In this document: piece after piece, positions 3,107 through 21,349 of the stretch
Layout: each line of letters begins with the position of its first letter
How positions within the stretch are numbered: position 1 is the stretch's first letter
Source of the DNA: Oscillospiraceae bacterium
GTDB taxonomy: Bacteria; Bacillota; Clostridia; Oscillospirales; Acutalibacteraceae
NCBI GenBank assembly: GCA_019417045.1
Contig: DXWE01000002.1
Span: forward strand, 1-23,238
DNA: 23,238 bases
Direction of reading: 5' to 3'
Position numbers and translations under genes: made by a program
The notes under the pieces: generated by a model
The model's input: only the letters and a program-made list of their open reading frames with translations
The model's database searches: none
Told to the model about the DNA's origin: nothing

Positions 3107-4053
3107 AAAAGCTGTTTACGGGCAAATTTGACTATATCGCCTCCCGCAAATTCTGCATCTTTCTCTCCCTGGCCGTGATCCTGATTGGGATCGTGTGCAA
3201 CCTGATTTTCGGCACGGATCTGGACGTCACCTTCAAGGGCGGCACCCTGATTAAATACAGCTATTCCGGAGACTTGAACCTGTCAGAGGTGGCCGACTAT
3301 GTCAGCAGTGATTTCGGCTACGAGGGCGTAGACGTCAAATCCTCGTCCTCGAGCGGCCTGCAGATGATCGATGTATACACGACCAACAGCCTGACCATGG
3401 AGGAGCAGGAGGCATTTACGGCCAAGCTGACCGAGCGGTTTGCGGCAAACGGGCTCGAGCAGGACCGGGTCAACTCCCTGAGCGCGACCATGGGAACTCT
3501 GTTCTTTGTCAAATGCCTGGTGGCCATTGCGCTGGCCGGCCTGTTCCTGATTCTCTATGTCTCCCTCCGGTTCCGCAAGATCGGCGGCTGGACTGCGGGC
3601 GTCATGGCGGTGGCCGCGCTGGTGCACGACATGCTGATCGCCTACTTTGCGTTTGTGATCTTCCGCATCCCACTGGATGGCAACTTCGTCGCCGTGTTGC
3701 TGACCATCCTCGGGTATTCGCTGAACGACACGATCGTCATCTATGACCGGATCCGTGAAAACCGGCGCCTGATGGATGCCAAGACGCCGATTGCGGAAGT
3801 GGTGAACACCAGTCTGAACCAGTCCTTCGCCCGTGTGTTCAACACGAGCCTGGCGACGATCGTCGCCATCGGGACGGTGGCGGTCATCTCCCTGATTCTC
3901 GGACTGGACGCCATTATCAGCTTTGCTGTTCCCATGCTGGTGGGCCTGATCGCCGGCTTCTACTCCTCCACCTTCCTGTGTGTCCCGCTGTGGGCGCTGT
4001 GGACGGAGAAACGACAGGCCAAAAAGGCAGCGACCGCCAAATCCAGGAAATGA
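3103..4053 (+). CDS. secF: Protein translocase subunit SecF
   Basis: 316 aa. An N-terminal TM helix, a periplasmic domain, then an RND-like TM bundle. ATGA overlap with the secD stop gives the canonical secDF arrangement. Confidence 0.9.
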   Translation: MKKLFTGKFDYIASRKFCIFLSLAVILIGIVCNLIFGTDLDVTFKGGTLIKYSYSGDLNLSEVADYVSSDFGYEGVDVKSSSSSGLQMIDVYTTNSLTMEEQEAFTAKLTERFAANGLEQDRVNSLSATMGTLFFVKCLVAIALAGLFLILYVSLRFRKIGGWTAGVMAVAALVHDMLIAYFAFVIFRIPLDGNFVAVLLTILGYSLNDTIVIYDRIRENRRLMDAKTPIAEVVNTSLNQSFARVFNTSLATIVAIGTVAVISLILGLDAIISFAVPMLVGLIAGFYSSTFLCVPLWALWTEKRQAKKAATAKSRK

Positions 4054-4402: not shown

Positions 4403-6811
4403 TTATGCAGAGGCCACCGTGGCCTGCAGAATCAACCGGGCATCCGTGCTGTTGATCGCGCCGTTCCCGTCCACATCCGCCGCCGCCTGCTGCTGCGCAT
4501 CCAGCTCGATCAGCTCCACGGTGAACTGCAACACCAGCCGGGCGTCGCTGCTGTTCACAAGCCCGTCGCCGTTGACGTCTCCCTTTTGCCCCGTGGACAG
4601 GCTGACGGGCATCACCTCGATATAGTCGATCACTGCCTCGCCGCCGAACCCGCCGGAGACCTCAATTGTGTTGACACCGGCCTGCAGCTTCAGTTGGACG
4701 GTCCTGTGCTGTACCATCTCCTCGCTTCCGTTCCGGATCGGGGCCATCTGCACCACGGTACCCGTCCCCTCGCCCGCACGGATGAGGACCGTTTTGTCCG
4801 CATTGCCACTATAGGCGATCGTCACATCATAGGTGCCCTCGGCGGCGACCTCCACCGTAAAGGCCAGCCGATTCAGGGAGGACCAGTTGCCGGCCGTATA
4901 CGCCGCGTTCTTGTCCGAGCCGTTCATCAGCCCGCCGACCGCCTGGCCGCCGGAATACTGGCTGCCGCTCTCGGTGCTGCCCTGCCCGGCGGGAACCGCG
5001 TCCGCGTCCTCCGCCTCATACCGCTGGCTGGACGGGTTCTCCTCGGTCTGTTCTACGGTGGCGGACGGCAGATTCAGCTCGATATAATCGATATTCGCCC
5101 AGGCGCCGCTGCCGACCACACCCGAGACACAGATCTCGTTGGATCCCTCCTGCAGCGTCACGGGAATCGTCTTGGTCCACAGAACATCCCAGCTGCCCGT
5201 TCCCTGCTGCGACAGCTCGACGGTCTGCTGGACGCCGTTCACCTTTACGAGAATGGTCTTGTCGTCGTCCCCGTTATACCCGATCCGGAGCTGATACTCG
5301 CCGGCCTTTTCCACCTGTAACCGATACTGTACGTAGCGGATGTTAGACCAGTCTGCACTCACCTGACTGATCGGGATCTCCGACCCGAGCCCACCCGCGG
5401 CGAGCTTGCCGGAGAAGAAGGTTTGCCGCTCGAATCCGGTCGGCGCATCCTCCTTGTCCATGTTGGAATTCACCACCGTCGCGTAGACGGGATCCTCTGC
5501 CTCAAACCGGGTCCAGCCCGTCTCCACCGCCGGAGACTGGCTGTCGGCGATGGCCTCTTTCACATAGTCGACCGTACTGGTTTTGTTGAAACCCAGAGTG
5601 CTCAGGGTGCTACCCCACTTCTGTTTGATCGTCTCGAAAGAGTCGTTGTAGGGATCGACTTCCGGCAGATCCTTCCAGTACCAGAACCAGTTGCCGTTGT
5701 TGCCCTTGCCGCCCTTGTAGCTCCAGGTCGTCCAGTGAATCCCATACTTGGTATATACATCGAAGGATTCCATATTGCTGAACTCGCCCATATACCCGGC
5801 GACGCCATATGCCTTCATGTTCTCGAACAGATCCTGGACCTCGTTTTCAAACGCCCAGATATAATCGGAATAGGTGTGGATCTGGTACATCATGTTGTAC
5901 CAGCCCTCCTCTGCGGGATCCGGCAGATAATTGCTGCTCCAGATACCCTCCAGCGTGATGATATGGCGGGTATCCACTTCACGGATCGCGGCCACCATCC
6001 GCCGGTAGATGCTGTTCGTCATCTCCTGGGTGGAGGAGAGCTGGGGCAGATAGAAATGCTCGTGCCCCCAGCTGCTGCCGTTGTTCTGCGGCTCGTTCAT
6101 GATGTCGTACGCCGCCACCGCCGGCTCGTCCTTATACCGCTCGGCGATCGCCACCCACAGCTTCTCCATGGCGGCCTGATACGCCTCATTGGTGTACAGA
6201 TCGTTTTCCTCCAGCGTCCCGGTGCTGTGATTGAGGCTCTGCCCACCGGGGCAGCCGTGCATGTCGAGGATCACGTACATCCCGCGCCGGCTCGCCTGCT
6301 CGATGGCCCAGTCCAGCCGCTGGAACCCGGGGTTGTCGTCCGGATCCTCGGTGATCCAGTCCCCTTCGGGATTGAGCATGAAGTTGCGGTACCAGAACGG
6401 GATCCGCACCACATTGCAGCCGGCATCGCGGACGACGTCGAAATCATAGCCGGTGATCCAGTTGTCCTGATACGTGTCAAACAGCTCCTGGATCTGCTCC
6501 TGCGTAAAGCCACGGGACTCAAAGACCTCGATCGTGTTGAGGTTGGCCCATTCGTTGTCCTCCCCTGCGATCGGGCACATCCAGTTTTCCTGAATCAGCC
6601 AGCCGCCGAAGTTGGTGCCCTGCAGGAGCACCTTTTCCCCCCGCTGGTTGACGATATCGGTGCCCTGCACATGCAGGAAATCCGCCTCCGTCAGCTGCTC
6701 ACTGGTGCTTGCCGCCGCACTCGTCAGCGGGACGCTCGTCCCCGCCAGCAGGATCGAACACAGCATGCACAGAGACAGCAGTGCGGAAATTCCCCGTTTC
6801 ATCCGTTTCAT
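4403..6811 (-). CDS. Cellulosomal GH5 glycoside hydrolase, 802 aa: signal peptide, GH5 catalytic module, two CBM6/35-like modules, C-terminal type-I dockerin
   Basis: GH5 hallmarks are present: NEP acid/base ('DIMNEPQNNG') and GEF nucleophile ('GYMGEFSN'). Two beta-sandwich modules each end in '..IDYIEL/V', as in CBM6/35. The C-terminus carries duplicated calcium-binding dockerin repeats 'GDVNGDGLVNSSDARLVLQ' and 'ADVDGNGAINSTDARLILQ'. Confidence 0.85.
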   Translation of the reverse strand: MKRMKRGISALLSLCMLCSILLAGTSVPLTSAAASTSEQLTEADFLHVQGTDIVNQRGEKVLLQGTNFGGWLIQENWMCPIAGEDNEWANLNTIEVFESRGFTQEQIQELFDTYQDNWITGYDFDVVRDAGCNVVRIPFWYRNFMLNPEGDWITEDPDDNPGFQRLDWAIEQASRRGMYVILDMHGCPGGQSLNHSTGTLEENDLYTNEAYQAAMEKLWVAIAERYKDEPAVAAYDIMNEPQNNGSSWGHEHFYLPQLSSTQEMTNSIYRRMVAAIREVDTRHIITLEGIWSSNYLPDPAEEGWYNMMYQIHTYSDYIWAFENEVQDLFENMKAYGVAGYMGEFSNMESFDVYTKYGIHWTTWSYKGGKGNNGNWFWYWKDLPEVDPYNDSFETIKQKWGSTLSTLGFNKTSTVDYVKEAIADSQSPAVETGWTRFEAEDPVYATVVNSNMDKEDAPTGFERQTFFSGKLAAGGLGSEIPISQVSADWSNIRYVQYRLQVEKAGEYQLRIGYNGDDDKTILVKVNGVQQTVELSQQGTGSWDVLWTKTIPVTLQEGSNEICVSGVVGSGAWANIDYIELNLPSATVEQTEENPSSQRYEAEDADAVPAGQGSTESGSQYSGGQAVGGLMNGSDKNAAYTAGNWSSLNRLAFTVEVAAEGTYDVTIAYSGNADKTVLIRAGEGTGTVVQMAPIRNGSEEMVQHRTVQLKLQAGVNTIEVSGGFGGEAVIDYIEVMPVSLSTGQKGDVNGDGLVNSSDARLVLQFTVELIELDAQQQAAADVDGNGAINSTDARLILQATVASA

Positions 6812-6830
6812 CTGACAACCGACCCCTTTC

Positions 6831-8759
6831 TTAACCGCTGACAGCCGTCTGTAAAATCAGGCGGGCGTCAGAACTGTTGATCTGCCCATTCACATCCATA
6901 TCCGCCAGCACCTGCTCGTCGATCGTCAGCTCCCTCAGGTCGACGGTCGCCTGCAGGACCATACGCGCGTCGCTGCTGTTGACAAAGCCATCCTGATTGA
7001 CATCCCCCTGCCGGATAGCCGGCTTGGGTTTGCCGATATCGATATAATCGTAGTTGATCCAGTTGTCATTGGCGGCTCCCTGCGTGCTGCCGGTGAGCCA
7101 GAGAACGGTGGTACCGGCGGGAAGCTCCACATCCCACGACCGTGTCTGCACCGTCTGCCAGCCGCCTGTTGAGGGCAGCGCCAGCCGCTCCCAGCTCTCC
7201 GCCGGCTGATCCCCCACCCGGAGATAGGCAATCACCTGTGTGGTGGTGGTCGCGTATCCGATCCGCAGCCGGTAGACCCCGGCCTCCGGCACGGTCACCG
7301 TGAATTTGACATACGGCACATTCGACCAGTCGGAGGCGATCTCCGAAACAGTCTGGATCTCGGCGTCGGTATTCAGGTTGCCGATAAACTGCCGGCCGGA
7401 GAAATTCTCGTTGTTGGTATTGAGCTTGGCGTTCTCGCTCCACTCGCCCTTTTCCGCCTCATACCGCGTCCAGGACTCCACCAGACTGTCGTCCGGGTCC
7501 ACATACGCGGCGGCCCGCACGGCGTCGATCACCCAGTCGTTGGCCTGGAAATTGCCGCTGTCCGTGCGCAGGGCACTGCCCCATTTCTGCTTGATCGTCT
7601 CAAAGGAATCACTGGTGGTATCGGCGATCGGCAGATCCGAGACAAACCAGCCCCAGCCACCGACCTGCTTGCCCGCCTTATACGTCCAGGTGGTCCAGCT
7701 GATCCCGCTCTGCTCGCAGATCGCGATCCCGTCCAGGTTGCTGAACTCGCCGACATAGCCCGCCACGCCGTAGCGGTTGCACACGTCCACCAGGCTGTCG
7801 ATGCCGCTCTGGAATCCCTCGTTATCGTTGTACAGGTGAAGCTGGTACATCATGTTGGTCCAGCCGTACTGTGCCGGATCGGGCAGATTGGAGATGCTCC
7901 AGATCCCCTCGATCGTGATCACATGGTCCGGATCCTGCTCCCGGATCACCGGGATCATCATGGCATAGATCTTGTTGGAGAGCTCCCACGAGGTGGGGTC
8001 ATTATAGGGATCCCAGTTGTTCGGGCCGTCGTAACCCGCGTTGTTCTGCGGCTCGTTCATCACGTCGTAAGCCGCGACCGCGGGCTCGTCCTTGTACCGC
8101 TCGGCAATCGCCGCCCACAGGCTCTTCATGGCCTCCTGGTAGACGGTATTGGTATAGAGCTCATTCTTGCCGAGCGTACCACAGCAGTGATCCTTGCTCT
8201 GCCCGCCGGGACAGCCGTGCATGTCCAGGATCACATACATCCCGCGCTCTTTGCACTCCTCAATCACCCAGTCCAGCCGCAAAAACCCGGGATTTTCGTC
8301 CGGATTCTCGTTGATCCAGGTGCCCGAGGCACTGGTCATGAAGTTGCGGTACCAGAACGGCACGCGCACCACATTGGCGCCTGTCTCCGCAATGAGATCC
8401 AAATCATATTCGGTGATCCAGTTGTCCTGATAGGTGTCAAACAGCTCCTGGATCTGCGCCTCGGTAAAGCCCCGGTTTTGCAGCGCTGCAATGCTGTCGA
8501 GGTTGGCCCACTGCCGGTCCTCGCCGTTGACCGGGCACATCCAGCTCTCCTGGATCAGCCAGCCGCCGAGGTTCACCCCGCGCAGCACCACCGTCTCCCC
8601 CTTGCGGTTGACCAGCTTTCCGTCCTCCACCGACAGGAAATCCCAATAATTCAGCGGCTGCCGGGCCGAAGAGGCAGGCAGAGCCGCCGCCGGCAGCGCC
8701 AGCCCGATCAGCAGGCAGACCGACAGAATTCCCGATACCAGTTGCTTCCACTTCTTCAT
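6831..8759 (-). CDS. Cellulosomal GH5 glycoside hydrolase, 643 aa: signal peptide (MKKWKQLVSGILSVCLLIGLALPAAA), GH5, one CBM35-like module, type-I dockerin
   Basis: Paralog of the flanking GH5 genes (LRGVNLGGWLIQESWMCP, NEPQNN, GEFSN). Dockerin repeats are 'GDVNQDGFVNSSDARMVLQ' and 'DMDVNGQINSSDARLILQ'. The start is the ATG at 8759 (RBS GGGAG); the tool ORF runs further upstream to 8960. It lies 19 bp from the next gene, so co-transcription is likely. Confidence 0.85.
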   Translation of the reverse strand: MKKWKQLVSGILSVCLLIGLALPAAALPASSARQPLNYWDFLSVEDGKLVNRKGETVVLRGVNLGGWLIQESWMCPVNGEDRQWANLDSIAALQNRGFTEAQIQELFDTYQDNWITEYDLDLIAETGANVVRVPFWYRNFMTSASGTWINENPDENPGFLRLDWVIEECKERGMYVILDMHGCPGGQSKDHCCGTLGKNELYTNTVYQEAMKSLWAAIAERYKDEPAVAAYDVMNEPQNNAGYDGPNNWDPYNDPTSWELSNKIYAMMIPVIREQDPDHVITIEGIWSISNLPDPAQYGWTNMMYQLHLYNDNEGFQSGIDSLVDVCNRYGVAGYVGEFSNLDGIAICEQSGISWTTWTYKAGKQVGGWGWFVSDLPIADTTSDSFETIKQKWGSALRTDSGNFQANDWVIDAVRAAAYVDPDDSLVESWTRYEAEKGEWSENAKLNTNNENFSGRQFIGNLNTDAEIQTVSEIASDWSNVPYVKFTVTVPEAGVYRLRIGYATTTTQVIAYLRVGDQPAESWERLALPSTGGWQTVQTRSWDVELPAGTTVLWLTGSTQGAANDNWINYDYIDIGKPKPAIRQGDVNQDGFVNSSDARMVLQATVDLRELTIDEQVLADMDVNGQINSSDARLILQTAVSG

Positions 8760-8875
8760 TGTACTACTCCCATTCCTTCTGTGGCATACGCGGGTCTGCA
8801 ACCCGTTTGCCGGATGTGTGCGCGCCAAAGCCGCCGCTCGCCCTGCGCTCGTATGAATTTCTCCTCGTGCGCCCC

Positions 8876-10180
8876 TCAGGCGGCGATTTGTTCCCGGACC
8901 AGCCGGATCAGCTCGGTATTCTCCTGGAAATGCCCTTTGGTGCGCAGGGGATTCCCCCATTTTTCCAGTATTTGCTCATAGGTGTCGGTATAGGGATCCA
9001 CGGCCGCGGGACTTCCCCACACCCAGAACCAGTTGCCCCAGTTGCCGGTGCCTCCCTTGTAGCTCCAGGTGGTCCAACTCAGACCGAGTTCCTCGCAGAT
9101 GGCGATCCCGTCCAGGTTGCTGAACTCGCCGACATACCCGGCCACCTTCCAGTCAGACACCGTGCGAAGGGTCTGCCGGGCGATATCGCGAAATGCGTCG
9201 GTCTCGTCGTACAAATGCACCTGATAGAGCATGTTGGTCCACCCGTAATCGGCGGGATCCGGCAGGTTTTCCGCCCGCCAGATGCCCTGCAGAGAGATCA
9301 CATGCGCCGGATCCACCTCCCGGATCGCGGCCACCAGCCGCGCATAGACCGCATTATACGAATCCCACGCCGCGGGATCCCAGGAATCCACATAATTCGG
9401 ATGGTCCTCAAACCCGCCGTTGTTCTGCGGCTCGTTGAGCACATCATACGCGGCCACCACGGGGCTGTCCTTATAGCGGGCCGCGATCGCCCTCCACAGG
9501 GACTCGGTGGCCAGCTGGCAGGTCTCATCGGTATACAGCCGGTTCTCGCCGAGCGTGCCACAGCAGTGGTTCAGGCTCTGTCCGCCCGGCGCGCCGTGCA
9601 GATCGAGGATCACATACATCCCGCGCTCACCGCACGCCTCGATCAGCCAGTCCAGCCGCAAAAACCCGGGATTCTCGTCGGGATTCTCGGAAATCCAGGT
9701 GCCCGTATCATCCGTCATGAAATTGCGGTACCAAAACGGCACGCGCACCACGTTGCAGCCGGTTTCGGCGATGAGATCCAGATCATATTCGGTGATCCAG
9801 TTGTCCTGATAGGTGTCAAAGAGCGTCTGGATCTGTTCTGCCGTAAACCCCCGCGATTCAAAGACCTCAATGGTGTCGAGATTGGCCCATTCCCCGTCTT
9901 CCCCCACGATCGGACACATCCAGTTCTCCTGGATCAGCCAGCCGCCGAGGTTCACCCCGCGCAGACGGACCGTCTCCCCGTTGCGGTTGACCAGCCGCGA
10001 CTCCTCCACCGAGAGGAAATCCTCATCGGTGATGTGCGCGGGCCGGGACGCCACCGGCCCCTGAGAAGGCGCGGACTCCTCCTGCGAGCCGGCCGGATCC
10101 GAGGCGCACGCCGAAAGCAGCAGCAGCCCGGCGGCGCAGATTGCCAAAACCCCTCTTTTCCACATCGAACGAACCTGCAT
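8876..10180 (-). CDS. GH5 glycoside hydrolase lipoprotein, 434 aa: lipobox signal peptide, catalytic module only, no CBM or dockerin
   Basis: The N-terminus 'MQVRSMWKRGVLAICAAGLLLLSAC' contains an L-L-S-A-C lipobox. The catalytic domain is about 70% identical by eye to the two downstream paralogs and carries the NEP and GEFSN motifs. RBS AAAGGAG lies 7 nt before the ATG. Confidence 0.8.
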   Translation of the reverse strand: MQVRSMWKRGVLAICAAGLLLLSACASDPAGSQEESAPSQGPVASRPAHITDEDFLSVEESRLVNRNGETVRLRGVNLGGWLIQENWMCPIVGEDGEWANLDTIEVFESRGFTAEQIQTLFDTYQDNWITEYDLDLIAETGCNVVRVPFWYRNFMTDDTGTWISENPDENPGFLRLDWLIEACGERGMYVILDLHGAPGGQSLNHCCGTLGENRLYTDETCQLATESLWRAIAARYKDSPVVAAYDVLNEPQNNGGFEDHPNYVDSWDPAAWDSYNAVYARLVAAIREVDPAHVISLQGIWRAENLPDPADYGWTNMLYQVHLYDETDAFRDIARQTLRTVSDWKVAGYVGEFSNLDGIAICEELGLSWTTWSYKGGTGNWGNWFWVWGSPAAVDPYTDTYEQILEKWGNPLRTKGHFQENTELIRLVREQIAA

Positions 10181-11950: not shown

Positions 11951-12712
11951 TTATACCGGAATGACCACCAGGATATCTCCCGGCGCCACACCGATCACCC
12001 GTACCTGCCGACCGTTTTCGAGAGGCGCCCGGTCGGAGACGGCGTCAAAATCCAACAGCCGTTCCTGTACCATGACCGTGACCTTTCCCTTGCCTCCCTG
12101 TGGGATGGTGAGATACACCTCTCCCACCTGGCCAACGGCGTTGCGCACGTCCAGGTTGCCGCTCTGCTGGAGCTTCAACGCCGCCCTCATCAGCCAGGCG
12201 ACCAGGAACAACGCAAGCAATCCCGCCAGCAGCGCGATCGTGACCGCCAGCGCCGGATGCAGCCCGCTGTCGAGCGTGGCAATCGCGGTCCAGCTCCCAA
12301 TGCACAGGAACGCGACAACGCCGCGGAAGGTGAACCAGTGCAGACCGTGCGCGTGCTGCGCGCCCGGGTCGGGCGCGTCGGTTTCGGGGAAGACATCCGG
12401 CTGTCCGTCCCCGGTGGTATCCACACCGCCGTCCACCCAGACGCCGTCCGCATCGGCAGCACCGTCGCCGTTCAAATCGAAGCCACCGTCCACCTGAGCG
12501 CCGTCCGGCATGGCGCCGGCGTCAAAGTCCACACCGCCGACATCCGTACCGACCGCATCCCCTTCCATCCCGCCGCCGAACGCGTCGCCGGTGGTGTGAC
12601 CGAGTCCGATAAACATCAGGACCGTCTGGATGAGCAGCAACAGCGTCGCCGGAAAGGCGACGGCGTACAGCGCCTGGGACAGCGTCGACAGACTGTTCCA
12701 CCACTCCGTCAT
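11951..12712 (-). CDS. NfeD-like membrane protein (YuaF-type flotillin partner), 253 aa, with an ~90-aa Asp/Gly-rich insertion
   Basis: TM helices plus a C-terminal OB-fold (GEVYLTIPQGGKGKVTVMVQ...GRQVRVIGVAPGDILVV) characteristic of NfeD. It sits directly upstream of flotillin, as in B. subtilis yuaF-floT. It overlaps the upstream gene by 4 bp (ATGA). Confidence 0.75.
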   Translation of the reverse strand: MTEWWNSLSTLSQALYAVAFPATLLLLIQTVLMFIGLGHTTGDAFGGGMEGDAVGTDVGGVDFDAGAMPDGAQVDGGFDLNGDGAADADGVWVDGGVDTTGDGQPDVFPETDAPDPGAQHAHGLHWFTFRGVVAFLCIGSWTAIATLDSGLHPALAVTIALLAGLLALFLVAWLMRAALKLQQSGNLDVRNAVGQVGEVYLTIPQGGKGKVTVMVQERLLDFDAVSDRAPLENGRQVRVIGVAPGDILVVIPV

Positions 12713-13422: not shown

Positions 13423-13522
13423 TGGCGTCCAGCTGACTCTTTTGTACTTCTTTGTCAAACCAAGGGGATTATCTCCTTTTATCTCCGCTTTTCTGCCTCT
13501 TATCGCTGATTTTCTCTGTTTC

Positions 13523-13551
13523 TTGCGTCTTTTGTCTGTTTTTGATATACT
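13523..13551 (+). promoter_or_regulatory. Putative folK promoter: TTGCGT, 17 bp, TATACT, within a T/C-rich leader
   Basis: Hexamers lie 23 nt upstream of the RBS GAGGAG and the ATG at 13574. Confidence 0.3.
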
Positions 13552-13573
13552 GTCCTTAATAGAGAGGAGAGCG

Positions 13574-14062
13574 ATGGAAATGCAGGTTTTGATCGGATTG
13601 GGCAGCAATCTGGGGGAGGATCCCGCACAGACGCTTTGCCGGGCACGGGAGGCACTCGACCGGCTGCCGGGCACACAGGTGCAGCGGGTATCCAGTCTGT
13701 ATCGCACCCGGCCGGTCGGCTATGATGACCAGCCCTGGTTTGTCAACCAGGTGGCAGAGCTGTGCTCCGGGCTGTCCCCGCATGCGCTGCTGGGCGCATG
13801 CCTCGGGATTGAGGCGGCGTTCGGCCGGGTGCGGAGCTTTCCCAACGCGCCGCGGGTGCTGGATCTTGATCTGCTGCTGGCCGAAGGTGTGCAGTTGCGG
13901 GATCCGGAGCTCATCCTGCCTCACCCCCGCATGGGAGAGCGCGGGTTTGTGCTCGTCCCGCTCGCCGAGCTGTTTCCGGACCGCACCGTATATGGTTATA
14001 ATTTTCGGGATGCCCTTGCCCGGTGTGATGTCACGGGGGTCGAGCGGCTCGCCGCTGTGTGA
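13574..14062 (+). CDS. folK: 2-amino-4-hydroxy-6-hydroxymethyldihydropteridine pyrophosphokinase (HPPK)
   Basis: 162 aa. 'VLIGLGSNLG', 'RTRPVGYDDQPWFVNQV' and 'RVLDLDLL...LILPHPRMGERGFVLVPLAEL' are HPPK signature blocks. The true start is the ATG at 13574 with RBS GAGGAG. Confidence 0.85.
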   Translation: MEMQVLIGLGSNLGEDPAQTLCRAREALDRLPGTQVQRVSSLYRTRPVGYDDQPWFVNQVAELCSGLSPHALLGACLGIEAAFGRVRSFPNAPRVLDLDLLLAEGVQLRDPELILPHPRMGERGFVLVPLAELFPDRTVYGYNFRDALARCDVTGVERLAAV

Positions 14063-14083
14063 ATGCCCCGTTTCCGTCATTTG

Positions 14084-14173
14084 CACCCGTGTTCCGTCTC
14101 GCGATCCACACCCGTGTCCTGTCCCGCCGCCGGCGCCCATATCCCCATCACGCGATCCACACCCGTGTCCTGT
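14084..14173 (+). repeat. Three copies of the direct repeat CAC(A)CCCGTGTYCYGT. Two copies share the extended 23-bp unit CGCGATCCACACCCGTGTCCTGT (14100-14122 and 14150-14172).
   Basis: Read directly. A second repeat pair CTGCYGGGCCCATCCYGT lies at about 14352-14392. Confidence 0.5.
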
Positions 14174-17787: not shown

Positions 17788-17823
17788 GCGTTCCGGGAAA
17801 GATCCCGGGACGCCGTATTTTTT
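17788..17823 (+). terminator. Rho-independent terminator of the kinase gene
   Basis: GCGTTCCGGG-AAAGAT-CCCGGGACGC is a 10-bp stem with one G·U pair, followed by TATTTTTTG. Confidence 0.7.
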
Positions 17824-17851
17824 GTGGCATTTCTGTCGAGATGTGCTATAA
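17822..17851 (+). promoter_or_regulatory. Putative MATE-gene promoter: TTGTGG, 18 bp, extended -10 TGcTATAAT
   Basis: Hexamers were read directly. It overlaps the preceding terminator U-tract. Confidence 0.3.
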
Positions 17852-17914
17852 TACTTGACAGACATTGCTGTTGAGAGGGAAAGGCGAGGCGGTATTTTGC
17901 AAAAATCACATGAG

Positions 17915-19300
17915 ATGGACATGTGCAGCGGTCCGTTGTTTCGGAAAATTCTTCTTTTTTCGCTGCCATTGATGTGTTCCGGAATCCTGCAGCTGCTCTT
18001 CAACGCGGCGGATATTATCGTGGTGGGCCAGTTCACGGGCAGCACCGCGCTGGCGGCGGTCGGCTCCACCACGGCGCTGATCAACCTGCTGGTCAACCTG
18101 TTTCTGGGCGTATCGGTAGGCGCAAACGTGCTGGTAGCCCGCAGTTACGGGGCGGGTGACCAGGAGACGGTGCGCAGGGGCGTGCACACCTCCATCCTGG
18201 CGTCCGGGATCACCGGCTTTTTCATGATTTTCATCGGCCTGCTGCTGTCCCGCCCCCTTCTGGAGCTGATGGGAACACCGGACGATGTGATCGATCAGGC
18301 CACCTTGTACATCCGCATCTATTTTATCGGCATGCCCGCGCTGCTGCTGTACAATTTCGGGGCGGCGATCCTGCGCGCGATCGGGGACACCAAGCGGCCG
18401 CTCTATTTTCTGCTGATCGCCGGCGTGGTCAATGTGATCTTCAACCTGATTTTTGTGATCCTGTTCGGGCTGGGGGTGGCGGGGGTGGCCATCGCCACCG
18501 TGATCTCGCAGTATCTGTCGGCGGCGCTGATTCTGTTGTGCCTGATCCGCAGCGACAGCGTGTGCCGGCTGATCCCCTCGGAGCTGCGGATCCATAAAAA
18601 GCAGCTGCTCGCCATTCTGCGCATCGGCCTGCCCGCCGGAATCCAGTCGGTCATCTTCAATTTTTCCAACGTGCTGATCCAGTCGTCCATCAACAGCTTT
18701 GGCTCCTCCGTGATGGCCGGCAACACCGCGGCCAGCAATATCGAGGGCTTTGTATACACCTCCATGAACGCGGTGTACCAGACCTCGCTGAGCTTTACGA
18801 GCCAGAACCTCGGCGCACGCCAATACCGCCGGATCGACCGGGTGCTGGCCGAGTGCCTCGGGCTGGTCACGGTGGTCGGGCTGGTGATGGGGATCGGCGC
18901 GTATCTGCTCGGGACGCCGCTGCTCGGCATCTATTCTCCCGACCCCGTCGTGATCGAATATGGCCTGCAGCGACTGGGTGTGGTGAGCGTCACCTATTTT
19001 CTGTGCGGCGTGATGGATGTGATCACCGGCAGTATCCGGGGGCTGGGCTATTCCATCCTGCCCACCCTAGTATCCCTGGCGGGTGCCTGCCTCTTCCGGG
19101 TGATATGGATCTACACCATTTTCGCGTCTTACCACACCCAGTTTATCCTGTATCTCTCATATCCCGCCTCGTGGATCCTGACGATTCTCGCGCACCTGGT
19201 CTGCTTTCTGGTCGCCCGGAAACGTACGCTCAAGCAGGCCGCCGCACAGGCAGATCTGCCCGCTGCGGCATCCGTCGCCTCTCCCGGCGAAACCCTGTGA
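17915..19300 (+). CDS. MATE family efflux transporter (12-TM multidrug/toxic-compound extrusion protein)
   Basis: The N-terminus 'GPLFRKILLFSLPLMCSGILQLLFNAADIIVVGQF' is the MATE signature start. About 12 hydrophobic helices, 460–480 aa. The start is ambiguous: ATG at 17915, or TTG at 17897 with a GAGG RBS. The tool ORF begins at TTG 17855. Confidence 0.8.
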   Translation: MDMCSGPLFRKILLFSLPLMCSGILQLLFNAADIIVVGQFTGSTALAAVGSTTALINLLVNLFLGVSVGANVLVARSYGAGDQETVRRGVHTSILASGITGFFMIFIGLLLSRPLLELMGTPDDVIDQATLYIRIYFIGMPALLLYNFGAAILRAIGDTKRPLYFLLIAGVVNVIFNLIFVILFGLGVAGVAIATVISQYLSAALILLCLIRSDSVCRLIPSELRIHKKQLLAILRIGLPAGIQSVIFNFSNVLIQSSINSFGSSVMAGNTAASNIEGFVYTSMNAVYQTSLSFTSQNLGARQYRRIDRVLAECLGLVTVVGLVMGIGAYLLGTPLLGIYSPDPVVIEYGLQRLGVVSVTYFLCGVMDVITGSIRGLGYSILPTLVSLAGACLFRVIWIYTIFASYHTQFILYLSYPASWILTILAHLVCFLVARKRTLKQAAAQADLPAAASVASPGETL

Positions 19301-19348
19301 ATGATTCTGATACCTCCCGGCCGGAGGTCGGGGAAAGGAAGTAGTACT

Positions 19349-20215
19349 ATGGACAACTGCAAGCGGATCCTGCTGGTGTGCACAGGGAACACCTGCCGCA
19401 GCCCGATGGCAGAGGGATTGCTGCGCGCGCTCGCCAGGGAGCGCGGGCAGGCGGTGGAGGTGCTCAGCGCAGGGCTGTGTGCGGACGGGTCCCCGGCGAG
19501 TCCACAGGCTGTCGCTGTCATGGCGGAACGCGGAATCGATATCTCCCGCCACGTGTCCCATCCGGTCACGCCGGAACTGTGTGCGGCAGCAGACATGATC
19601 GGCGTGATGTCCGCCGGCCACCGGGATTTGCTCATTCGGCTGTTCGCAGTGCCGGCGGAGAAGGTGGTCTTGCTCGGCGGGGGGATCCCCGATCCGTTTG
19701 GCGGCACCCTGGAAGACTACCGCCGCACCCGGGACGCGCTGGAGAAAGCGGTGCGGGTGCTGCTGCCGAACTGCCGGATTGTGCGGATGGAGGAGCGCCA
19801 CATCGAGCCGCTCGCCGCGCTGGAGAAAGCGGTGTTCTCCACCCCGTGGACGGCGGACGGCCTGCGGGAGGAGCTGCAAAATCCTCTCGCGGTCTTTCTG
19901 GTGGCGGAGGACGCCGCACAGGGCGCCGTGCTTGGCTATATCGGCCTGCACCACGTGCTGGACGAGGGGTTTGTGACCAATCTCGCGGTGGATCCGGCCC
20001 GCCGGCGGGAGGGGATCGGCGGTGCCTTGCTGCAGGCTGCCTGCGCCTATGGCCGGGAGCACGGGCTCTCCCGCCTGGCGCTTGAGGTGCGGGCGGGCAA
20101 CCGGGAGGCGATCGCGCTGTACGAGGCCGCGGGCTTTACGCGCGACGGCCTCCGCCCCGGGTTTTATGACGCCCCCCGGGAGGACGCTGTGCTCTATTCC
20201 TATCATTTCCGGTGA
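19349..20215 (+). CDS. rimI: Fusion protein: YwlE-like low-molecular-weight protein (Arg/Tyr) phosphatase domain (aa 1 to ~145) fused to the ribosomal-protein-alanine N-acetyltransferase RimI (GNAT) domain (aa ~150 to 288)
   Basis: N-terminal P-loop 'LLVCTGNTCRSPMAEG' (CX5R(S/T)) plus the 'IPDPFGG' D-P general-acid loop make an LMW-PTP/YwlE domain. The C-terminal 'IVRMEERHIEPLAALEKAVFSTPW...LEVRAGNREAIALYEAAGF' is a RimI GNAT. It is one continuous ORF with no stop or frameshift. RBS GGAAAGGAAG. It lies immediately upstream of tsaD. Confidence 0.8.
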   Translation: MDNCKRILLVCTGNTCRSPMAEGLLRALARERGQAVEVLSAGLCADGSPASPQAVAVMAERGIDISRHVSHPVTPELCAAADMIGVMSAGHRDLLIRLFAVPAEKVVLLGGGIPDPFGGTLEDYRRTRDALEKAVRVLLPNCRIVRMEERHIEPLAALEKAVFSTPWTADGLREELQNPLAVFLVAEDAAQGAVLGYIGLHHVLDEGFVTNLAVDPARRREGIGGALLQAACAYGREHGLSRLALEVRAGNREAIALYEAAGFTRDGLRPGFYDAPREDAVLYSYHFR

Positions 20216-20341
20216 GTGCGCCGCGCGAACCCGTCTACTGTCCCCTCCCTATTGGGTAAGCGTCGCCGCATGAGCGGTTTGCCGCTGCTCTTCTCCCGGC
20301 AGAGGGTTTTTGTCCCCCATTCTTTTTCAGAGGTGATCCCC

Positions 20342-21349
20342 ATGCGGATTCTGGCCATCGAATCCTCCTGCGACGAAACCGCCGCCGCCGTGGTGGCGGA
20401 CGGCCGGCAGGTGCTGTCGAATATTGTCGCCTCCCAGGTGGAGGAACACCGGCTGTACGGCGGCGTGGTGCCGGAGATTGCGAGCCGCCGCCACGCCGAG
20501 GCAATCTCCGGCGTGGTGCGGGAGGCTCTGCAGCAGGCGGGAACCCCCCTGTCCGCCATCGACGCGGTGGCGGTGACCTATGCGCCGGGGCTGATCGGCG
20601 CGCTGCTCGTCGGGGTCAATTTCGCCAAGGGTCTCTCGCTCGCGTCGGGGCTCCCGCTCATCCCGGTGCACCATCTGCGCGGGCACATCGCCGCCAACTA
20701 TCTGGCGGATCCCGATTTGCACCCGCCGTTTCTCTGCCTGATCGTGTCGGGCGGGCACACCCATCTGGTACAGGTGGATGACTACACCCGGTTTCGGGTA
20801 CTCGGCCGCACGCGGGACGACGCGGCGGGGGAGTGCTTTGACAAGGCGGCCCGCGCGATGGGCATGCCCTATCCGGGCGGCATCGCACTCGACCGCCTGG
20901 CAGAGACCGGCGACCCCCACGCGTTCTCGTTTCCCACCCCCCATGTGGAGGGGAGTGCCTACGACTTCAGTTTTTCCGGGCTGAAAACCGCGGTGCTCAA
21001 TCTGCTCCACCATGCGCAGCAAAAGGGAGAAACTCTCCCGCTGCCGGACGTGTGCGCCTCCTTTCGCGGCCGGGTGGTGGACATCCTCTGCGACCACACC
21101 CTGCGTGCGGCCAAAGAGCTGCACAGCTCCGCACTGGTGCTGGCCGGCGGGGTGTCGGCCAACCGGGAGCTGCGCCGCCGCATGACGTCTCTGTGCAGGG
21201 AGAACGGTCTCTCCCTGCATATGCCGCCGTTGCCCCTGTGTGGGGACAACGCCGCGATGATCGGCTCGCAGGCCTTTTATGAGTTTGCCGCAGGCCATGT
21301 CGGCGGGGCGGATTTGAACGCCGTCGCCACCCTGCCGATTGAAGGATAG
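20342..21349 (+). CDS. tsaD: tRNA N6-adenosine threonylcarbamoyltransferase TsaD (Kae1/YgjD family)
   Basis: 'MRILAIESSCDETAAAV', 'PLIPVHHLRGHI' and 'GGVSANRELR' are canonical TsaD motifs, including the HxxH metal site. 335 aa. The true start is the ATG at 20342. Confidence 0.9.
   Translation: MRILAIESSCDETAAAVVADGRQVLSNIVASQVEEHRLYGGVVPEIASRRHAEAISGVVREALQQAGTPLSAIDAVAVTYAPGLIGALLVGVNFAKGLSLASGLPLIPVHHLRGHIAANYLADPDLHPPFLCLIVSGGHTHLVQVDDYTRFRVLGRTRDDAAGECFDKAARAMGMPYPGGIALDRLAETGDPHAFSFPTPHVEGSAYDFSFSGLKTAVLNLLHHAQQKGETLPLPDVCASFRGRVVDILCDHTLRAAKELHSSALVLAGGVSANRELRRRMTSLCRENGLSLHMPPLPLCGDNAAMIGSQAFYEFAAGHVGGADLNAVATLPIEG

Follow-up and report, generated by a model that had tools for sequence, protein, structure and literature searches.

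A YwlE-type phosphatase fused to the N-acetyltransferase RimI upstream of tsaD, and the recurrence of such phosphatases beside t6A genes

Introduction

Why should a low-molecular-weight (LMW) protein phosphatase share one polypeptide with the N-acetyltransferase RimI, just in front of a gene for tRNA modification? The question is raised by a 23,238-nucleotide (nt) stretch of an Oscillospiraceae bacterium (positions 1 to 23,238 of contig DXWE01000002.1, assembly GCA_019417045.1; here called the window), in which a single gene codes for a YwlE-type phosphatase joined to RimI and is followed by tsaD, a gene of N6-threonylcarbamoyladenosine (t6A) synthesis. The t6A modification, carried by tRNAs at position 37, is universal and in most bacteria essential, and the control of its synthesis is poorly understood; protein arginine phosphorylation, the modification that YwlE reverses, is known chiefly as a stress and degradation signal in Bacilli. 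We find that the fusion is a large family, and that phosphatases of this type are joined to two members of the t6A gene neighborhood, TsaC and RimI. The fusion protein is predicted to be a two-headed protein-modifying enzyme, and we consider it probable that it was born by loss of a stop codon between coupled genes of a conserved Clostridia operon.

Two complete domains in one reading frame

An uninterrupted open reading frame (ORF) extends from 19301 to 20215 on the plus strand with zero internal stops. The fusion gene within it starts at ATG 19349 (MDNCKRILLVCTGN...), where the homologs begin, and an AGGAAG Shine-Dalgarno-like motif lies about 9 nt upstream. The gene and its parts are as follows.

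19349..20215, plus strand: fusion gene for a YwlE-type LMW phosphatase plus RimI N-acetyltransferase, 288 amino acids (aa), recognized from the single ORF, Pfam, TIGR01575, and homologs
19349..19774, plus strand: N-terminal phosphatase domain (aa 1-142), recognized from the closest solved structures and superposition on YwlE
19379..19402, plus strand: P-loop CTGNTCRS (aa 11-18), with the nucleophile Cys11, Thr15, and Arg17, recognized by conservation
19691..19705, plus strand: DP loop DPFGG (aa 115-119), with the general acid Asp115, aligned with the DPFGG of YwlE
19760..19789, plus strand: junction LLPNCRIVRM, where the last phosphatase helix ends and, after a linker of about three residues, the first RimI strand follows; it holds Met147
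19775..20215, plus strand: C-terminal RimI domain (aa 143-288), with the RimI structures 5isv, 9mto, and 2cnm as closest solved relatives
20000-20023, plus strand: acetyl-CoA motif RRREGIGG
20081-20092, plus strand: LEVR with Glu246, invariant in 121 fusion proteins
20114-20125, plus strand: ALYE with Tyr258, invariant in the same 121 proteins

A first-pass annotation of this DNA had described a YwlE-type phosphatase fused in frame to RimI, and both halves prove to be complete. Pfam LMWPc matches aa 7-139 (E=1e-26), Pfam Acetyltransf_1 (GNAT) matches aa 157-263 (E=3e-19), and the NCBIfam model TIGR01575 (rimI) matches aa 153-282 with 106.2 bits, over its curated equivalog cutoff of 86.4. The YwlE character of the N-terminal half is likewise borne out: among solved structures it is closest to the YwlE proteins of B. 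subtilis (1zgg and 4kk3, E=6e-26) and Geobacillus (4pic), and the N-terminal domain predicted with AlphaFold superposes on YwlE 4kk3/4kk4 at 1.5 to 1.6 Å. The domain has the LMWPc fold, the C-X5-R-(S/T) P-loop, the Asp of the DP loop, and a Thr at P-loop position 5, equivalent to Thr11 of YwlE. Among the 121 fusion proteins, Cys11, Arg17, and Ser18 are at least 90% conserved and Asp115 and Pro116 are invariant; of 209 retrieved proteins with a recognizable P-loop, 190 have CTGNTCRS and 204 have Thr at position 5 (CTGNTCRS or CSGNTCRS). YwlE (PrpB) of B. subtilis and Geobacillus thus has the same fold, nearly the same P-loop (CTGNTCRSPMAE) including the position-5 Thr, and the same DPFGG, but it stands alone, at about 150 aa, whereas the window domain is joined to RimI and is about 40% identical to YwlE.

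ArsC-type arsenate reductases and capsule-type Wzb tyrosine phosphatases have the LMW-phosphatase fold in common, and NCBIfam arsC and Wzb models match the N-terminal domain weakly. It is nonetheless very improbable that the domain is one of these and not a protein phosphatase. The scores lie far under the cutoffs (58 versus 215 and 53.6 versus 174 bits for arsC, 57.8 versus 243 for Wzb), the downstream Cys pair of ArsC is not conserved, the sole other Cys (aa 78) being variable across the family, the phosphatase Asp general acid is invariant, and there are zero arsenic or capsule genes among the nearby ORFs of the window. We rejected both identities on the subcutoff scores and the absent ArsC cysteine pair. 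We note in passing that the LMW phosphatase of Thermoanaerobacter tengcongensis in PDB 4egs carries the sequence-record label "Ribose 5-phosphate isomerase RpiB," probably a naming slip due to an adjacent rpiB, an arrangement known from ywlE-ywlF of B. subtilis.

The P-loop Thr bears on the substrate. In YwlE and Drosophila DARP this Thr shifts the preference from phosphotyrosine to phosphoarginine, according to a passage in PMC7772506 that cites Fuhrmann 2013. By this likeness, Thr15 provisionally points to phosphoarginine as the substrate that the N-terminal domain would prefer. Weighing against a firm assignment, the position-5 Thr is invariant in Planctomycetota homologs too, and we know of no description of the arginine kinase McsB in Planctomycetota; the Thr alone is therefore not proof of phosphoarginine specificity.

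In an alignment with E. coli RimI, Glu246 and Tyr258 of the RimI half match its LEVR and ALYE segments; they are the equivalents of E103 and Y115 of enterobacterial RimI, which we take to be catalytic. The bS18-alanine N-acetyltransferase RimI of E. coli and Salmonella shares with the window domain the acetyl-CoA motif, the Glu and Tyr, and, as in many bacteria, a tsaD neighbor. It differs in that it usually stands alone, at about 150 aa, and is encoded in a tsaE-tsaB-rimI-tsaD cluster, whereas the window RimI has a phosphatase at its N terminus and neither tsaE nor tsaB nearby.

The fusion is a widespread family

The closest homolog, P0001, is 99% identical to the window protein, has 288 aa, and has the same domains. 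A second, P0002, from a sister species, is 86% identical, has 290 aa and again the same domains, and its ORF is intact in three separate assemblies, each with the gene order of the window around the fusion; jointly these assemblies cover HPPK, aconitase, APH, MatE, the fusion, TsaD, and phosphoenolpyruvate (PEP) carboxykinase. There are at least 120 homolog clusters at 90% identity, and the best 120 are all full-length two-domain proteins, 43 to 99% identical to the query. When 1.84 billion representatives at 50% identity were searched, 132 clusters came up at E<=1e-30, and among the best 150 clusters at this identity level, 87 are at least 250 aa long and have the P-loop. At least 87 clusters at 50% identity thus have the phosphatase-RimI architecture. 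A sequencing or assembly artifact is ruled out by the independent assemblies and by the large family with the same ORF, and the possibility, raised with the first-pass annotation, that a stop codon or frameshift splits two genes is contradicted by the intact ORF in the three sister-species assemblies.

Both domains belong to well-known families, and the phosphatase-RimI fusion is present in public databases, where it is named for RimI only. The NCBI labels of the fusion homologs, where they are named at all, read only "ribosomal protein S18-alanine N-acetyltransferase," and the sources are Clostridia or Acutalibacteraceae metagenome-assembled genomes (MAGs). It had been anticipated that the fusion might prove to be widespread and already annotated as a known family; widespread it is, but it is not a named family. 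We found no solved structure containing both domains, and in the open-access literature no paper on a phosphatase-RimI fusion, a TsaC-phosphatase fusion, or a YwlE-Sua5 link.

RimI fusions of another kind have been described in M. leprae and Neisseria, where RimI is fused to TsaB (PMC5335608). These resemble the window protein in that RimI is joined to an upstream neighbor in a t6A gene cluster, and they differ in that the partner is the t6A subunit TsaB, whereas the partner in the window is a phosphatase.

The two domains appear to be tethered modules

The window protein is modeled with high confidence throughout, junction included (mean predicted local distance difference test [pLDDT] score of 96.4, predicted template modeling [pTM] score of 0.89), with a linker of only three residues. 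This suggested a fixed, co-evolved interdomain interface, an interpretation that we dropped after a control with P0134, a homolog with a 40-residue linker and nearly the same alignment: both of its domains are confident, the linker has pLDDT values of <50, and the pTM score is 0.54. Because the long-linker control falls to 0.54, the window score of 0.89 reflects the three-residue linker and not a conserved interface. Linkers also vary in length and sequence between the fused groups, some being 40-residue Pro/Ser-rich stretches. The models thus suggest that the two domains may be tethered, independently folding modules rather than partners in a fixed interface.

The proposal that RimI might also be made separately, from an internal Met (MEERH), found no support. 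This residue is Met147 (ATG 19787), in the first RimI strand; no Shine-Dalgarno-like motif lies upstream of it, and the position is occupied by M, L, I, or F across the family. We regard a separate RimI from an internal start at Met147 as unsupported, there being no Shine-Dalgarno motif and no conservation of the Met.

Fused and unfused genes in the same order

We surveyed gene order around the phosphatase using one genome per species and the peptide pattern GNTCRSPM, which gave at least 80 loci, a sample and not a census. Phosphatase and rimI are both present in 61 of 80 sampled loci, which with the window makes 62, and they are adjacent in all of these except L070, where glycoside-hydrolase genes lie between them, and L065, where they are about 230 nt apart. 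These loci are labeled Acutalibacteraceae, Ruminococcaceae, Oscillospiraceae, Ruminococcus, Butyricicoccus, Solibaculum, Neglecta, and unclassified Clostridia. The two genes are fused in frame in 18 loci plus the window (19/62) and have separate reading frames in the other 43, among them the cultured species sampled, Solibaculum intestinale (L022) and Butyricicoccus sp. (L037). The fusion is thus not the basic state, most of the related gut and rumen bacteria having two genes in the same order.

The unfused loci show how the merger could come about. In 17 of the 43 the phosphatase stop overlaps the rimI start by 4 nt (ATGA, GTGA, or TTGA), and in about 15 others a candidate start for rimI precedes the phosphatase stop. 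Overlapping stops and starts of this kind are classic for translationally coupled genes, and a one-base change can therefore merge phosphatase and rimI. A neighbor-joining TsaD tree scatters the fused genomes over five or six positions, and the nearest relatives of the window, L018 and L023, are unfused. We read the fusion as derived from the two-gene state, apparently more than once. Two considerations qualify this picture. Fewer fusions followed by later splits are possible, the tree being built from one protein and carrying no support values; and the gene string itself is not constant, since tsaD is not always downstream (L021, L043, and L019). It lies close downstream on the same strand in about 50 of the 62 loci, within a few hundred bases to about 1.4 kb of rimI, mostly with a gap of <50 nt and in a few cases with an inserted gene.

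Several variants of the string were seen along the way. An SmpB-like ORF is inserted in L018 (8838-9452) and extra GNAT-like ORFs are inserted in L027 (8903-9403) and L037 (8839-9306), all judged by eye; a 618-aa ORF lies between phosphatase and rimI in L070 (637-2493); and L062 has a second, partial LMW-phosphatase-like match 3' of tsaD (3345-3530).

Much of this would also suit a neutral accident without shared function, in which a housekeeping phosphatase happens to sit in a conserved cluster of growth genes (prfA, tsaC, ywlE, and others). Fused and separate genes are intermixed among close relatives, the ATGA overlap makes merging easy, long floppy linkers are tolerated, with no confident interface in the P0134 control, and the upstream neighbors vary (polA, sua5, or matE). 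YwlE moreover has many targets in B. subtilis (PMC10117790). We consider a neutral origin rather unlikely all the same, for the adjacency of phosphatase and rimI is kept across many Clostridia species, and the wider distribution of the phosphatase, described below, also speaks against it.

The phosphatase beside, and fused to, TsaC

What lies 5' of the phosphatase varies. In 34 sampled loci polA ends at or overlaps the phosphatase start. In 11 Clostridia loci (L007, L009, L029, L035, L036, L044, L052, L056, L062, L066, and L074) a full-length Sua5/TsaC gene is directly 5' of the phosphatase, as confirmed with Pfam Sua5_yciO_yrdC and Sua5_C in L009, L035, and L056 and supported by tblastn in the other eight; the gene order in those genomes is therefore tsaC, phosphatase, rimI, tsaD. 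L035 is both preceded by sua5 and one of the fusions. Release-factor genes are often found 5' of sua5.

The association extends to lineages in which the phosphatase has no rimI beside it. Nineteen sampled loci are of this kind, and in 13 of them Sua5/YrdC directly precedes the phosphatase or, in Bacilli, is separated from it by one small gene. These 13 come from Bacillota (Tissierella, Gallicola, Symbiobacteriaceae, Brevibacillus, and Melghirimyces), Dictyoglomota, Planctomycetota, and a Pontiella MAG. That B. subtilis ywlE lies next to ywlC (tsaC), as the first-pass annotation suggested, would fit the Bacilli loci L064 and L079, in which a single small gene separates the phosphatase gene from a sua5 upstream.

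Six loci, four of which belong to the 13, have Sua5/YrdC and phosphatase fused in a single ORF.

L058 635-2401: Sua5/YrdC-phosphatase fusion of a Bacillota MAG, 588 aa
L077 7344-8456, L078 7320-8468, L068 7239-8459, L076 4007-5134, and L080 6017-7195: Sua5/YrdC-phosphatase fusions of Planctomycetota, 370 to 406 aa

With L077 as the query, all of the best 120 clusters carry both PF01300 and PF01451 in about 370 aa (Planctomycetota/Phycisphaerae), some named "protein-tyrosine phosphatase" and others "L-threonylcarbamoyladenylate synthase." An alignment of 37 members shows no variation in the K-x-R and S-A-N motifs of TsaC or in the phosphatase DP loop. Of the seven conserved residues of the P-loop, five are likewise invariant (Cys, Gly, Asn, Arg, and the Thr at position 5). 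The KxR and SxN motifs seem to be gone from the YrdC-like half of L068, L076, and L080. The TsaC (YrdC)-phosphatase proteins of Planctomycetota/Phycisphaerae and the Sua5-phosphatase of the Bacillota MAG are like the window protein in their YwlE-type domain, with its invariant CxGNTCRS and DP, and in a partner from the t6A neighborhood. They are unlike it in having the phosphatase at the C terminus and the threonylcarbamoyl-AMP (TC-AMP) synthase as its partner.

That LMW phosphatases recur beside t6A genes, as the first-pass annotation had guessed, is thus seen well beyond its guess, in tsaC-ywlE-rimI-tsaD strings and in a large TsaC-phosphatase fusion family. These findings speak against the neutral accident considered above: the phosphatase adjoins tsaC beyond Bacillota (in Dictyoglomota, Planctomycetota, and the Pontiella MAG), the Planctomycetota family is large and both of its active sites are invariant, and two independent fusion partners out of one pathway neighborhood would be an unlikely coincidence.

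A proposed origin and function

The explanation that we favor, a bifunctional enzyme produced by fusion within a conserved operon, would run as follows. The operon, whose order is conserved in related Clostridia, consists of a ywlE-like phosphatase, rimI, and tsaD, with tsaC/sua5 as the upstream gene in some lineages, polA in most, and matE in the window. The stop codon between the translationally coupled phosphatase and rimI would have been lost, leaving one gene. Each half looks equipped for catalysis. The N-terminal domain is predicted to dephosphorylate proteins by the LMW-phosphatase mechanism, with the thiolate of Cys11, Arg17, and Asp115, and the C-terminal domain is predicted to transfer acetyl from acetyl-CoA to a protein N terminus (that of bS18 in model organisms), using Glu246 and Tyr258. 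Fusion would mainly fix 1:1 production and hold both activities together, and the fusion protein would be coexpressed with TsaD from one message. We infer the substrates, and likewise a role for the phosphatase in the service of the translation or t6A machinery.

A stronger proposal is that the phosphatase domain is a dedicated regulator of t6A synthesis or translation that dephosphorylates TsaD, TsaC, substrates of RimI, or ribosomal proteins, possibly reversing phosphorylation by kinases of the TsaE/UbK family or by an arginine kinase. Its appeal is that, at the level of genes, the phosphatase keeps company with tsaC, rimI, and tsaD in more than one arrangement and phylum, and several published observations offer possible connections to a phosphatase substrate by analogy. 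The TsaE homologs YdiB, UbK, and SP-TyK are reported to be Ser/Thr/Tyr autokinases (PMC8689070, PMC13241743); loss of the LMW phosphatase of S. pyogenes lowers sp-tyk expression about eightfold (PMC8689070); RimI of M. tuberculosis binds TsaD and acetylates it in vitro (PMC5335608); and dephosphorylation of Tig (trigger factor) by YwlE leads to the restart of translation in germinating spores (PMC10117790). The same S. pyogenes phosphatase, however, failed to dephosphorylate the TsaE-type kinase (PMC8689070). Supplements on the arginine phosphoproteome of S. aureus are without tsa genes, rimI, or rpsR by gene name, in tables that may use locus tags. Neither tsaB nor tsaE was found near the phosphatase in the 80 sampled loci, and tsaE is near the fusion in none of the loci examined, both of them weak negatives. 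On balance we regard such a dedicated regulator as unlikely.

The broader form of this idea is that YwlE-type LMW phosphatases are an unrecognized accessory or regulatory component of the t6A and translation-modification machinery, through a shared substrate or an undescribed step of t6A synthesis. We raise it because the phosphatase is independently fused to TsaC and RimI and stands directly after tsaC in several lineages, and we hold it to be a speculative proposal that is doubtful at present. Of the phospho-regulatory link at which the first-pass annotation had hinted, the genomic association with t6A genes stands, whereas regulation itself is a matter of inference.

The fusion alone is of modest interest because overlapping genes fuse easily; the genuine lead is the recurring association with TsaC, RimI, and TsaD across phyla. 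A YwlE-type phosphatase that is repeatedly linked, and twice fused, to proteins of the t6A neighborhood makes for a testable hypothesis, and the natural fusion proteins are at hand for testing it. Hundreds of proteins listed in databases simply as "RimI" or simply as "TC-AMP synthase" are probably bifunctional and under-annotated.

Gene neighborhood in the window

The genes flanking the fusion gene, and the spacer behind it, are these.

17855..19300, plus strand: MatE-family transporter gene (Pfam MatE), ending 48 nt before the fusion gene
20216..20341, plus strand: 126-nt spacer separating the fusion gene from tsaD; a weak hairpin and T-run lie at 20285-20302
20342..21349, plus strand: tsaD, t6A threonylcarbamoyltransferase subunit (TIGR03723, 429.7 bits versus a cutoff of 296.1; Pfam TsaD, E=3.5e-93)

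The tsaD product scores above the curated equivalog cutoff of TIGR03723. Its listed ORF opens at GTG 20216, but the start MRILAIESSCDE at 20342 has a GAGGTGA Shine-Dalgarno sequence and agrees with the homologs. The domain scan of the window ORFs bears out the earlier description of tsaD following the fusion with tsaB and tsaE absent nearby, neither a TsaB nor a TsaE domain occurring in any sizeable ORF of the window. We note that the gap between the fusion gene and tsaD is 28 nt in the 86%-identical sister species; the window is about 92 nt longer here, and the extra stretch holds the weak hairpin and T-run.

A promoter-like site (17824-17852) precedes matE, after a strong terminator (17788-17813), and no terminator was seen before 19349. 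Thus, matE is probably the first gene of the same transcript as the fusion gene, and the matE-fusion order is also found in the sister species. Located 3' of tsaD is a gene for a GTP-dependent PEP carboxykinase with its own promoter-like site. The remaining sizeable ORFs of the window code for an aminotransferase, SecD, SecF, three GH5 proteins, an SPFH protein, a MerR-like protein, HPPK, aconitase, and an APH-family kinase, and an Rfam scan of the window returned zero RNA families. Two ORFs on the minus strand, of 253 aa (11951-12712) and 194 aa (13556-14140), have no Pfam match; the second overlaps the HPPK gene (13442-14062, plus strand) and is probably not real. The three GH5 genes are consecutive (4403-10180, minus strand), the first two having CBM6 and type I dockerins and the first also CBM35. 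These GH5/dockerin genes suggest a cellulosome-producing, fiber-degrading organism of the Clostridia, with a G+C content of about 60%.

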